Source of the DNA: Campylobacterota bacterium
GTDB lineage: Bacteria; Campylobacterota; Campylobacteria; Campylobacterales; Sulfurimonadaceae
NCBI GenBank assembly: GCA_034717975.1
Contig: JAYEMF010000011.1
Span: 28,471 to 58,700 of the forward strand
Direction: 5' to 3'
Length of the DNA: 30,230 nucleotides
Shown here: positions 26,634 to 30,230 of the stretch, piece by piece
Numbering within the stretch: the stretch's first letter is position 1
Layout of the letters: each line of letters opens with the position of its first letter
Translations under genes and position numbers: made by a program
The notes under the pieces: generated by a model
Database searches by the model: none
Told to the model about the DNA's origin: nothing
The model's input: only the letters and a program-made list of their open reading frames with translations

Positions 26634-28124
26634 ATGCACTGCAAAATAATTTTATCGCTCATAATAGCTTTTTTTGGTGTAACATCCCTTCATGCTCAGA
26701 GTTTTGAGGATTTCAAACGAGCTCAATTCAAATCATATAGCAAATATAAAGAAGAGCGCGATCAGGCATTTAAGAACTATTTGACCAAAGAGTGGAAGGC
26801 TTATCAGCTCTCACAGGGTAAAAAACTTTATGAAAAACCCAAGCCTAAGACTATACCAAAAACAATACCAACTGAACATGCACCTGTCGGACCAAAGGTG
26901 ACGATCAAGATTCCTAAACTGCCCGTAGCGCCAAAGCCTGTTGTTGAAATAAAGCCTGAAGTTCCTGCCAAACCTGTCGAAAAGCAGTTTCCTGAACCGA
27001 AAAAACCGATTCAGGCAGAAAAAAAAGCTGTATCAGAGCCTGACAGGATGGATTTTTACTTTTTTGGGACAAAAGTCTCACTGATTGTTCCTGCATCAAT
27101 GCGACATGCCAAACTTTCATCATATGATCAAAGGGGGATTGCCGGTTTTTTTGACCAGCTGGCTACCAATGAGTATGAAAAGGTTCTTAGCTCATTTGAA
27201 AAGCAGCATGAGCAGCTTCAGCTGAATGACTGGGGCGGGTATCTGTTGCTTAAAGCAGTCAGTGAGAAACTTTACAATAAGCCTGCCGAAGCAACGCTGT
27301 TTAGCTGGTTCATCTTAAACAAGCAGGGCTATGCCGTCAAAGTCGGCTTGAGTGGTAGCGAGCCGGTTTTACTCCTCCATTCAAAAAAGGTGATCTATTC
27401 AACACCAAATTACAGTTTTGGCAAAGAGAAATATTACGCCATTGAATATTATGGAAAAAAGGGAACAGGGAGATTGAAAACCTATCCTGAGAAATACCAG
27501 AATGCCGATAAACCATTCAATATGAGCCTTCAGACAATGCCTGATCTTCATCCTTATCAAAAGTCAAAAGTATTGATATTTCGTTATCGGGGGGCTGAAC
27601 ATACCATCAATGTCTCCTATAATAAAAACCTGATCGATTTTATGGAAACCTATCCTCAGGCTGATTATGCAACCTATTTCAATGCTCCTCTAAGCAGTGA
27701 AAATAGAATCTTGCTTCTTAAGCAACTAAAGCCTATGCTCGATGGCAAGCAGGCAAGCCGTGCGATTAACTTTTTACTCTTCTTTGTCCAGCATGCCTTT
27801 GAATATCAGGTAGATGATCAGCAGTTTGGCCGGGAAAAGGTGATGTTTGCTGATGAGACGCTTTATTATAACGCGTCTGATTGTGAAGACCGTGCCGTAC
27901 TCTTTGCCTATCTGGTGAAAGAGCTTTTCAATGTAGATGTAATCGGGGTCAAATATAAAGATCATATGGCCACAGCCATAGCCGTCCCGATGAAAGGTGA
28001 AACTATAAAATTTGGACAATCACGTTATGTGATTGCCGATCCGACCTATATCAATGCCTCAGTTGGACAGAGTATGCCGAAGTACCGAAACATCACTCCG
28101 GACAGTTTTATCCGTGTGGAGTGA
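26634..28124 (+). CDS. Exported hypothetical protein with Pro/Lys-rich linker and C-terminal transglutaminase-like (Cys-His-Asp) domain
   Basis: Signal peptide; SDCEDRA, KDHMATAI and IADPTY motifs. Confidence 0.75.
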   Translation: MHCKIILSLIIAFFGVTSLHAQSFEDFKRAQFKSYSKYKEERDQAFKNYLTKEWKAYQLSQGKKLYEKPKPKTIPKTIPTEHAPVGPKVTIKIPKLPVAPKPVVEIKPEVPAKPVEKQFPEPKKPIQAEKKAVSEPDRMDFYFFGTKVSLIVPASMRHAKLSSYDQRGIAGFFDQLATNEYEKVLSSFEKQHEQLQLNDWGGYLLLKAVSEKLYNKPAEATLFSWFILNKQGYAVKVGLSGSEPVLLLHSKKVIYSTPNYSFGKEKYYAIEYYGKKGTGRLKTYPEKYQNADKPFNMSLQTMPDLHPYQKSKVLIFRYRGAEHTINVSYNKNLIDFMETYPQADYATYFNAPLSSENRILLLKQLKPMLDGKQASRAINFLLFFVQHAFEYQVDDQQFGREKVMFADETLYYNASDCEDRAVLFAYLVKELFNVDVIGVKYKDHMATAIAVPMKGETIKFGQSRYVIADPTYINASVGQSMPKYRNITPDSFIRVE

Positions 28125-28135
28125 TTTGTAGGGAT

Positions 28136-28184
28136 GAGTAACGGTCGCGCTGAGCCCGTTTAGGGTTCAGCGCGACCGTTGCTC
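28136..28184. repeat. 22-bp-stem GC-rich palindrome at the edge of the cassette array
   Basis: GAGTAACGGTCGCGCTGAGCCC-gttta-GGGTTCAGCGCGACCGTTGCTC, 20/22 Watson-Crick plus two G.T. Confidence 0.9.
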
Positions 28185-28202
28185 GTTGCAGCAAAGCGGA
28201 AA

Positions 28203-28269
28203 CGAGCAAGACTGACTTGAACTGTAAATTTTCGCTAGAAAATTTATTAGTTCCAAGGTTTTGTTGTAC
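28203..28269 (-). mobile_element. Integron attC site (terminal, R' box degenerate)
   Basis: Minus strand R'' GTACAAC-AAAAC-L'' CTTGGAAC...L' GTTCAAG-TCAGTC-TTGCTCG; extra base in L''; no GTT at R'. Confidence 0.7.
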
Positions 28270-28272
28270 TTT

Positions 28273-28956
28273 TTAGTCTAGTAAAGCCATACTGTTTTGA
28301 ATACTCTCATCTATAAACTTTAAAAGTTCATTTTTGTCATTAATAGCTGTTAAGTATTCATCTCTATGCTCATTTTCTATAAGTGGTGGAACAATATTAT
28401 TTTGTATTGCTTGAAAAGCCATTATTAATCTTCCAACTCTTCCATTACCATCAGCAAACGGATGCACTCTTTCAAATAATATATGAAACTCTGCAATATT
28501 TAACAGACTCATATTATTGCTATCGAATCTATAAAGTAAATTTTCTAAATCATTTGAGATTTTATTTGGTGCTGATAGTTTTATATCTACACCTTTTATA
28601 TATCTTTCATCTAGTCTATATGCTCCAACGGGTTTAGAAACATATTCAGGTGCTACTTTTAAAGCATCTTCAAACATGATTGCATGGATATCTTTTATAA
28701 AACTACTATTAATAATAATTTCTTTATTGGTAGCCTCACGAACTATTACATCGTAAGCTTTTGCAAAACCCAATATTACAAGTTGTTCACCTAGTGGTTT
28801 ATGCCCTGCTGTATGTCCTAGCTCTAGTAGTTCTTTTGTTTCACCAAAAGAAAGAGTTGTTCCTTCCATCGCATTTGAATGATGAGTGATTGATATACGA
28901 AGTTGTCTGAAAAGTTCTTCTCTTTGTTTTAGTGATAGTTCATTTAATTTTTTCAT
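28273..28956 (-). CDS. Fic-family protein (class II, N-terminal inhibitory helix), cassette-borne
   Basis: HPFADGNGRVGR Fic motif; SNAMEG inhibitory motif; AAGGAG RBS; stop 3 nt before the attC. Confidence 0.92.
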   Translation of the reverse strand: MKKLNELSLKQREELFRQLRISITHHSNAMEGTTLSFGETKELLELGHTAGHKPLGEQLVILGFAKAYDVIVREATNKEIIINSSFIKDIHAIMFEDALKVAPEYVSKPVGAYRLDERYIKGVDIKLSAPNKISNDLENLLYRFDSNNMSLLNIAEFHILFERVHPFADGNGRVGRLIMAFQAIQNNIVPPLIENEHRDEYLTAINDKNELLKFIDESIQNSMALLD

Positions 28957-28962
28957 AATATT

Positions 28963-29202
28963 TTATCTCCTTGTTTATCTTCTTAGTGCAATAATGAAAT
29001 GGTACACTATAAAACCCGTAATAAGTTTATTAAGCATCCATATATAAAAAAATCAGCATAGACTGAATCGTTACTTGGCATTTTTATATTCATAAATATT
29101 GCTAGGTTATTTAGTGATCCAAATTTAAATAAATAAATTATTAAAGATAATCCTAAAATTATTATCTCTTACATATTCAAAACAATTTTTTGCTATTTCA
29201 AC
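28963..29202 (-). pseudogene. Probable eroded gene remnants upstream of fic
   Basis: 14 codons VEIAKNCFEYVRDN, then in another frame a hydrophobic tail needing +1 T in a T7 run and read-through of one TAA (..YHFIIALRR*TRR*). Confidence 0.5.
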
Positions 29203-29265
29203 GTTTCTCTTGAACCATATAGTTTCGCCGTAGGGGAAACTATTGGTTCCTAGTTTTTGTTATAT
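29196..29265 (-). mobile_element. Integron attC site
   Basis: Minus strand R'' ATATAAC-AAAAA-L'' CTAGGAAC-inner hairpin-L' GTTCAAG-AGAAAC-R' GTTGAAA; 70 bp. Confidence 0.85.
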
Positions 29266-29729
29266 GTTTTTTGAAAGTTGATGAAGGTTGGTTCTAGTAC
29301 CAAATGAAAAGCATCTTCAATTAGCCTTCTTTTAAATTCATCGTTTACTTCGATCCAAACTATAGTCACATTGTATGTTGAATTATCACCTTTTAGCTTT
29401 TTATTAAAAAAAGCTGGATACATTCCCTTTTTACTATCTCCGGCTATTCCTAGTTTTTCACCATTAGCTATAAATATAGACTCATCATAATGGCATTTTA
29501 TTCGGGAATACAGTGATTTTGCTTTTCCTACATAAATAACTTTATTCGTATCTTCTAAATAGTAGATATATATGCCACTTTTCTTACTAACATTTTCTTT
29601 TATAGATTTATAAATCAACTCTTTCTTGCAAATATCTCCATGTTCTAAAATAAAACTGTTTTCAGAAGTTTTATTAAAGCTTTTTAATTGTTCTAGAAAA
29701 AGATTGGTGGTTTCTACTATTTCACTCAT
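29250..29729 (-). CDS. GIY-YIG nuclease family protein, cassette-borne
   Basis: SGIYIYY...IYVGKA..L..RI..H, downstream E and N (IE...FIN); GAGGA RBS directly after R'. Confidence 0.85.
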   Translation of the reverse strand: MSEIVETTNLFLEQLKSFNKTSENSFILEHGDICKKELIYKSIKENVSKKSGIYIYYLEDTNKVIYVGKAKSLYSRIKCHYDESIFIANGEKLGIAGDSKKGMYPAFFNKKLKGDNSTYNVTIVWIEVNDEFKRRLIEDAFHLVLEPTFINFQKTYNKN

Positions 29730-29740
29730 ATATAATCCTC

Positions 29741-29809
29741 ATATAACGGTTGAGTTGAGAAATACTTGAGCCGCAGGGTCAAATATTTCTCTCCAATGAT
29801 TTGTTATGT
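29741..29809 (-). mobile_element. Integron attC site
   Basis: Minus strand R'' ACATAAC-AAATC-L'' ATTGGAGA-inner hairpin-L' TCTCAAC-TCAACC-R' GTTATAT; 69 bp. Confidence 0.88.
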
Positions 29810-29810
29810 T

Positions 29811-30230
29811 TTATATTTTAATGATACCTTCGAGATATTTTTTTGCATAACCAGATATTTCAACTCTATTATTTTTTAATAAGCAAAAAACTTCTCCACC
29901 ACGTTGTGAAACTTGTCTTGCTCTAAAAGTATGTTTAGATAAAACCTTATGCCAATAAGGGATTAATTGAGTAAATGCTGAACCTGTCACTGGATCTTCA
30001 TTTATACCATATTTTGGAGCAAAGAATCTATTGATAAAATCGTATGTTTGACTTTTTGAAGTTATTATAATTCCTCGTCCATCAATCTCTTTTAAGAAGT
30101 CAAAATTTGGCTTAGCATTTAAAATATCATCTTCATTTTCAAATACTAAAATATAATCCATGGATTTATAACACTCTATTGGTTTTACTTCAAATGCTTT
30201 TAATAAATTACTTGTTATGTCACATTTTAT
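29811..30230 (-). CDS. PhzF-family isomerase/epimerase, 5'-truncated by window edge, cassette-borne
   Basis: RFFAPKYGINEDPVTGSA and QVSQRGG motifs; frame stays open from 30161 to the window end. Confidence 0.88.
   Translation of the reverse strand: MKCDITSNLLKAFEVKPIECYKSMDYILVFENEDDILNAKPNFDFLKEIDGRGIIITSKSQTYDFINRFFAPKYGINEDPVTGSAFTQLIPYWHKVLSKHTFRARQVSQRGGEVFCLLKNNRVEISGYAKKYLEGIIKI

Follow-up and report, generated by a model that had tools for sequence, protein, structure and literature searches.

Sedentary chromosomal integrons, as defined for IntegronFinder (PMC9024848), combine an IntI integrase, an attI site, a promoter Pc and attC cassettes. The array analysed here occupies the last 2.1 kb of a 30,230-base window (the whole stretch of DNA that was analysed) from a Campylobacterota genome, and it probably belongs to another integron of this type. 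The integron to which the array is assigned below agrees with them in an IntI scoring over the TIGR02249 cut-off, a divergent attI with a -10 box, AT-rich single-gene and toxin-antitoxin cassettes in one orientation, and attC sites of 66-70 bp with an extrahelical G and bottom-strand folding; here, however, the array is small and from a Sulfurimonadaceae-type genome, its link to intI is by synteny only, and one attC site (attC3) is degenerate. Taken alone, the array is an ordinary chromosomal integron, and the main subject of this work is its outermost unit, a cassette without a gene. Arrays split across contigs yield false calls of attC clusters without an integron-integrase (CALINs) (PMC9024848), and the right edge of the window is the end of contig C11. 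In what follows, G000 is the genome of the window, C-numbers are its contigs, other G-numbers are other genomes and L-numbers are fetched loci.

Gene-less cassettes are known as promoter cassettes of Vibrionaceae (PMC11014356) and from Treponema and Xanthomonas (PMC8876359), and a recurrent multi-copy 'empty' cassette is described from Xanthomonas (10.1101/2025.06.18.660453), so the concept is not new. The unit studied here resembles them in having no open reading frame (ORF), in its G|TT boundaries and in occurring in several copies per array. However, according to the review (PMC8876359), the known ones carry a classical attC, whereas here only about 25 bases lie outside a site of about 163 bp (49 bp in the window copy). 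A paired spacer, the lack of an extrahelical base, a conserved two-arm branch and a subfamily with a GAT/ATC core further distinguish the present family, which is set apart from the 'empty' Xanthomonas cassette by description, not by sequence. Work on attG (GWT) sites and single attC sites lacking integron-integrases (SALINs) describes IntI as accepting a GWT triad (10.1101/2022.09.11.507474), which the G|AT subfamily fits; in attG, however, GAT lies in a double-stranded chromosomal target, while here it is part of the folded core of the cassette itself, where it pairs with ATC. No description of such a gene-less family in Campylobacterota was found in a literature search that left most subscription papers, and supplements that may contain cassette sequences, outside its reach. 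Miniature inverted-repeat transposable elements (MITEs) and repetitive extragenic palindromes (REPs and REPINs) are likewise short, gene-less, palindromic and multi-copy, and depend on an enzyme in trans. Unlike them, the gene-less unit has no terminal inverted repeats with target duplication and is confined to integron cores.

We consider it moderately probable that the window array is the far end of an integron whose integrase gene lies on contig C95, and that its outermost unit is a shrunken gene-less cassette, a minimal passenger of IntI.

The gene-less cassette and its family

The gene-less cassette is the most distal unit of the array, 68 bp on the minus strand (28142..28209), and is matched by the family model with an E-value of 1.5e-11, with 116 model positions skipped. 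An earlier note, made from the letters of this DNA alone, had described the distal end of an attC array here; the array stands, but this fourth unit past attC3 was missed. The attC-like palindrome of the unit (28136..28184, minus strand) is 49 bp long and fully paired, with a folding z-score of -10.2, R'' GAGCAAC at 28184-28178 and the terminal core G|TTACTC at 28142-28136. The order of elements is TTGCTC, a 19-nt loop, R'' GAGCAAC, the bulge-free palindrome and G|TTACTC. The window copy is an internally deleted member of a family of 180-191 bp; both branch arms are lost, likely by deletion between GGGC microhomologies seen in the alignment. A fuller copy lies on C95 behind the first cassette, and G000 has two copies in all.

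With the window copy as the query, the unit was found in eight of 301 genomes of the host family (G000 and seven of the 300 others). A full copy as the query matched 24 of 401 genomes of the order, in seven families, a count that includes G000 and weak partial matches. The first pattern scan of the collection gave no matches; pattern scans returned ten GTDB and five metagenome matches in all, several of them duplicates, titled Sulfurimonadaceae, Sulfuricurvum, Arcobacteraceae, Helicobacteraceae and, once, as a Bacteroidales bin. Across the phylum, the family model detected the unit in four of 151 genomes, all inside the order. Outside the order, it is represented by a single contig, titled Bacteroidales, which could be mis-binned.

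Twenty-one copies are full-length (180-191 bp), and no conserved ORF was seen in them; 11 stand behind attI, and ten behind attC or a unit of a second family described below. The insertion point behind attI or attC is exactly the G|TT (or G|AT) junction, and an array often contains several copies; in some (L067, L068, L083 and L086), two or three near-identical ones are spaced about 1 kb from each other. The start is G|TT in 17 full copies and G|AT, with a compensating ATC in R'', in the other four; further partial copies also start with G|AT, and all 21 full copies end at G|TT. As the G|AT starters with ATC in R'' still end at G|TT, the crossover is fixed right after the G. Other deleted forms are present at L031, L044, L054, L072 and L081. 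There are also hybrids in which half a gene-less unit is fused to the start of a coding cassette or to its attC (L081:~228-261; L054; L069); such fusions could give rise to new cassettes or to long attC sites.

Predicted structure of the gene-less units

A consensus fold was derived from 19 of the 21 full copies, two near-identical second copies being left out. The consensus energy is -112 kcal/mol for the bottom strand versus -70 kcal/mol for the top strand, and the bottom-strand consensus has 76 pairs, of which 37 are changed on both sides, with 96.4% of cells paired. None of 500 shuffles reached the observed pairing, and slid controls gave 36-43%; these controls overstate the result, since the alignment consists of related copies and also served to derive the structure. 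The predicted fold consists of a hairpin joining the cassette start to its own R'', a bulge-free stem of 15-16 bp and two branch arms. Helix 1 has 15 continuous pairs (97.9% paired, eight changed on both sides), and 11-13 of the first 13 positions are complementary. The start-R'' hairpin (helix 6) is likewise 97.9% paired with compensatory changes, includes both GTT/AAC triads and recurs in the minimum-energy folds of all full copies that were folded. The conserved C/G-GNA-G/C loops, which we take to be mini-hairpins of the DNA type, favour a fold of single-stranded DNA over one of RNA. Folded as circles, the bottom strands of eight copies are 80-85% paired, and an excised circle of 182 nt would be paired to about the same extent.

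The bottom strand folds better in all 21 full copies, by 12 kcal/mol on average, and is favoured in 13 of 13 units of both families checked; for ordinary, shorter attC sites the folding bias averages 2.1 (PMC5027507), a value that refers to different lengths and settings. The gene-less site thus agrees with the attC rules in its bottom-strand bias, as well as in its GTT/AAC core with the crossover after G. However, it has no unpaired central spacer and no extrahelical base in L, and the published attC length range is 57-141 (PMC5027507). Since two defining features and the length range fail, the site was not filed as a canonical attC.

A second gene-less family, 150-155 bp long, was found behind two Fic homologs and has the same layout of hairpin, stem and two arms (L120, L123, L142-L159). 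A search for it matched 23 of 301 genomes of the order, four of them marginally, and at one locus (L156) it forms a tandem with a unit of the first family. Short motifs in common suggest that the two families may be distantly kin.

Proposed mechanism and alternative explanations

Replicative resolution is an established part of integron biology. In the mechanism proposed here, IntI cuts the gene-less unit out in the form of a folded circle and inserts it anew at attI, and replicative resolution would account for the additional copies. Orientation would be set by the large folding bias of the bottom strand, in place of the extrahelical base and the unpaired spacer, in line with the proposed role of nucleotide skew (PMC5027507). 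In the integrated state, the fold would bring the two crossover points to one junction, an arrangement that might either help or impede excision. Excision of short cassettes can be more frequent if a flanking site folds poorly (PMC5371416). Being the most distal, the window copy would be the oldest capture at the locus, and it is likely a relic, since both arms are lost and the upstream G is gone in this assembly. A self-copying passenger is favoured because of the recent duplications and the bias to the non-transcribed strand.

It is possible, though we advance it tentatively, that integrons of Campylobacterales more generally host selfish minimal cassettes without genes. These would be circles of 150-190 nt of almost fully paired, branched single-stranded DNA, of at least two families with one architecture, which would use IntI without an extrahelical base or an unpaired spacer, and even with a GAT core. 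Such integron parasites would likely be missed or mis-split by current attC models. Their fold would hold both crossover points side by side, and they may be likened to MITEs or viroid-like rods.

Several points weigh against a passenger of IntI. The mobility, role, excision and circle of the gene-less unit are inferred, and the pairs were counted on the alignment of related copies that gave the structure. The arm sequence is conserved, with a mean column identity of 76% across families, a degree of conservation beyond the obvious needs of a purely selfish element. Fully paired spacers or lost extrahelical bases can lower recombination, 50-fold in VCR2, with no effect at two other sites (PMC5027507). 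The short hairpin might also work the other way, covering R'' and delaying excision. As for the movement of cassettes in the window array itself, one joint in run X1 skips 29202-29742, that is, the GIY-YIG cassette, at a depth of 6.7; the shorter side of this joint amounts to just 22 letters, and another organism may be its source.

The main rival is that the host keeps the gene-less cassette as a regulator, acting through a promoter inside it, through a structured untranslated leader by which a first-position copy silences the array, or as a small RNA. The conserved arms would fit such a role, as would the 11 full copies directly behind attI and its -10 box; moreover, gene-less cassettes with promoters or RNAs are known in Vibrio, Treponema and Xanthomonas (PMC11014356, PMC8876359), and poorly translated first cassettes lower downstream expression (PMC11511950). 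The enrichment in the first position is itself weakly supported, as it is seen in 11 of the 21 full copies but in none of 30 attI loci chosen by pattern, which are mostly of one family where the unit is rare; inner copies are also under-assembled. The folding bias, however, favours the strand that is not transcribed from the cassette promoter Pc, and the family is GC-rich, whereas host promoters are AT-rich. A consensus scan of 28050-30230 called no promoter- or terminator-like site in the window copy, and Rfam gave no match in the window at gathering scores and, for one full copy, a best match with an E-value of 2.3 outside the element; an antisense RNA would still be compatible with these results. 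On balance, we regard a regulatory role as unlikely, though it deserves serious attention.

The gene-less cassette could also act as a lock if its first hairpin, in which its own R'' pairs with the upstream core, masked two recombination sites and so immobilised attI or the neighbouring units. The conservation of helix 6, with both triads inside it, would fit such a lock. However, the recent duplications within arrays imply movement, and on C95 cassettes were added in front of the gene-less unit. Nor is integrase loss linked to the unit: intI adjoins four of 23 loci with the unit first and seven of the 30 sampled loci with the attI pattern (a few of these being chance matches), in samples that differ in family make-up, and the idea that a unit in the first position causes integrase loss was dropped on these counts. 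A lock therefore seems improbable to us.

Probable integrase and genomic position of the array

A single IntI in the genome exceeds the TIGR02249 cut-off (C95:2100-3065; 408 versus 265 bits). What we take to be the R, HxxR and Y motifs and the integron insertion motif were located in it. The C95 attI is divergent from intI, with the crossover at 1854 and a -10 box; its core is common to C95 and C12 (C12:801), and the start of the first cassette complements that cassette's R''. The C95 array runs off the left end of the contig, and contigs aligned to C95 include some that extend beyond this end. The genes behind intI are sulP, valS and uvrD (valS and uvrD named by sequence resemblance).

The window array is flanked on its left by a core gene of 496 aa (26634..28124, plus strand), which stands next to or near sulP-valS in four of the five relatives fetched: it lies 69 bp away in G017, and one to four genes intervene in G003, G005 and G022. 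In G010 the neighbourhood differs, with no sulP beside the 496-aa gene. The ends of C11 and C95 are both array DNA in matching orientation, and both carry copies of the gene-less unit. The depths of their two core flanks are similar in each of four runs (~27-29 vs 25, 43 vs 49, 7 vs 7 and 7-8.5 vs 5); these runs are not independent support because they belong to one study, possibly the source of the assembly. Depth declines along the array, which suggests mixed cassette content; it is not a copy number and was not used as proof. From the gene order, the C11 array and the C95 intI very probably belong to a single integron, with sulP on one side of the insertion and the 496-aa gene on the other. 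The earlier note had named two options, intI and attI beyond the right edge or a CALIN. The first fits the intact intI and attI on C95 and the synteny in four of five relatives, and the second is unlikely because the same intI and gene order place intI just right of the window.

A separate integrase-less cluster, either a CALIN or an orphan-attI array, is conceivable because a second integron exists in the genome and attI-like sites without intI are common in the order. Within C11, no intI lies near the attC sites, although the array there runs off the contig. Moreover, no contig, read or record bridges C11 and C95, the contig-end overlap search gave no link of C11-right or C95-left among the overlaps listed, and G010 departs from the expected gene order. 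Against this stand the 69 bp between the 496-aa gene and sulP in G017, the proximity of both in G003, G005 and G022, and the two contig ends, which match in orientation and depth and have the gene-less unit in common. We find a separate cluster very improbable.

Compared across related genomes, as the earlier note had proposed, the locus points to C95 by its gene order. For five orthologous loci of relatives, the 70-position attC model gave no match at E<=1; the 133-bp attC of C95, searched alongside them, escaped it as well, so the model is blind to long sites. At the orthologous place in G005 (L026:3721-4365), an AT-rich toxin-antitoxin-like pair lies beside sulP; the same model, with the same blindness, found no attC there.

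Enzymes of other kinds are known to target integron sites, as in IS1111-attC elements and group IIC-attC introns. Movement of the gene-less unit by such an enzyme in trans (an HUH or IS110-type transposase) would suit a unit without the bulge and unpaired spacer usually read by IntI, and a truncated copy outside any array beside a transposase-like ORF (L041; putative identity), but it is the least probable of all, as the exact insertion between G and TT or AT, the start complementary to its own R'' and the constant orientation are those of IntI products, and no transposase or reverse transcriptase lies within the unit.

attC sites and cassettes of the window array

The array has a GC content of 29.7%, versus 45.5% in the rest of the window, and all its sites lie on the minus strand, the bottom strand being the folding strand. 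Three ORFs are encoded on the minus strand, namely a Fic, a GIY-YIG-like and a cut PhzF gene, and each ends in an imperfect palindrome. The three palindromes reported in the earlier note measure 69, 70 and 66 bp (67 bp for the third with the start given there), and their common layout was found again as far as R'' (..AAC), the 5-nt gap, the 8-nt L'' with an extra base and the 7-nt L' are concerned; attC3, however, is without the GTT core.

The first site, attC1 (29741..29809, 69 bp), has its crossover G|TTATAT at 29747/29746, and attC2 (29196..29265, 70 bp) has G|TTGAAA at 29202/29201. The 66-bp attC3 (28204..28269), the site of the Fic cassette, has a core that is degenerate in this assembly, because C and not G stands at 28210. 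The intact form G|TTGCTC is present in one contig of run X1, and the closest Fic homologs are likewise intact. L'' carries an extra G in all three sites, and L'' and L' match at 6/7, 6/7 and 7/7 positions in attC1, attC2 and attC3, respectively. The z-scores of bottom-strand folding are -4.1, -6.0 and -2.7 in the same order, calculated for 70-nt stretches of which that of attC3 is offset from the final coordinates; none of 200 shuffles folds as well.

Seven attC sites from outside the window, six of them on C12 and one in G027, were used to build a covariance model. This model gave seven matches in the 30,230 bases at E<=5, with all three sites on the expected bottom strand (attC1 1.8e-13, attC2 5e-4, attC3 0.015), which upholds the earlier description of attC and cassette architecture. 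It also scored the other strand of attC1 (E 0.0086), and the remaining matches have E>2. A scan requiring GTT called only attC1 and attC2 in the array. A loose attC grammar scan of the whole genome was dropped, as its 1341 raw and 90 filtered hits were mostly chance or REP-like repeats; its place was taken by the covariance model and by a stricter scan, which itself called roughly one false site in every 10 kb of core loci.

The Fic cassette (28210..29201, minus strand) is 992 bp long with a 245-bp leader, in which a weak promoter-like site (29033-29006, 9/12) was seen, and its start matches its own R'' at 5/7 positions. It encodes a Fic/DOC-family protein of 227 aa (28273..28956, minus strand; PF02661, E 9e-17), with DNA homologs in many genomes of the host family. 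The GIY-YIG cassette (29202..29746, minus strand) is promoterless and has exactly the 545 bp, the G|TTATAT start and the R'' ATATAAC that had been predicted, the start being the exact complement of its own R''. The nuclease-like gene in it (29250..29729, minus strand; 159 aa) has its stop codon within attC2. The 3' part of a PhzF-family gene (29811..30230, minus strand; PF02567, E 2e-17) is cut by the contig end. The labels Fic and PhzF given in the earlier note pass the Pfam cut-offs, while GIY-YIG falls just under its own (E 3e-4; 21.5 versus 22.6 bits), though the GIY..YVG..R motif is visible.

The product of the 496-aa gene has no Pfam or NCBIfam match and has homologs in 14 of 40 relatives. 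It is conserved, encoded downstream of flgH and likely to carry a signal peptide. Its C-terminal DCED..A motif suggests what we presume to be a transglutaminase-like cysteine protease.

The first cassette on C95 (120-1854, L019) is 1.6 kb long and contains four ORFs (TIR-like, Sel1-repeat, one unassigned and RelE) and the 133-bp attC. The TIR-like match is below the cut-off and could point to phage defence.

Signs of cassette shuffling were found in related genomes and in the runs. As a DNA query, the array matched 82 of 301 genomes of the host family, mostly through the Fic cassette or a single attC. The best matches of Fic homologs stop at or before the attC3 core, and the PhzF match in G304 stops at the attC1 core. 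Of 19 Fic homolog loci inspected by eye, nine keep the whole attC with GTT, followed by differing units, and the others are truncated or without attC. No homologs of the GIY-YIG cassette were among the matches listed in 300 genomes of the host family. Loose ends in the runs are concentrated at 28210-28216 and 29806-29807, with many different neighbours adjoining the predicted crossovers.

Other integrons and repeats

The second integron of G000 (C34:20353-20698 and C12:1-4540; L021, L020) has a truncated intI, the halves of which lie on C34 and C12, interrupted by a multi-copy repeat of ~290 bp. Behind the attI at C12:801, six attC-bounded cassettes contain a RibD-like gene, one unassigned ORF and four toxin-antitoxin pairs, and most cassette starts complement their own R''. 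The ~290-bp MITE-like family has terminal inverted repeats of ~31 bp, internal palindromes and dozens of copies in the genome; it lies at many contig ends (e.g., C12:1-250, C89:39221-39515 and C11:67-197) and accounts for many contig breaks. A loose scan also showed dispersed REP-like nested palindromes of ~132 bp (C2:850-981, C11:23520-23653, C30, C33, C67, C77 and C104).

The pattern of attI plus promoter was present in 122 of 401 genomes of the order, against about ten in the reversed control, often with two to seven sites per genome (e.g., G096, G102, G592 and G647; L088-L117). In G062, a complete genome, attI occurs together with the gene-less unit, and no match to IntI was found.

Significance

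For annotation, repeats of this kind break assemblies within arrays and create false CALINs. The gene-less family is a natural and widespread test of the structural rules for attC recognition, as its long, branched, bulge-free site has a paired spacer and, in one branch of the family, a changed core, and yet it is found at the exact crossover of IntI and in a single orientation. Should it recombine well, folding bias alone can set the choice of strand, and integrons carry minimal parasites of their own. If it recombines poorly and still persists, it would be a regulator or stabiliser of arrays.

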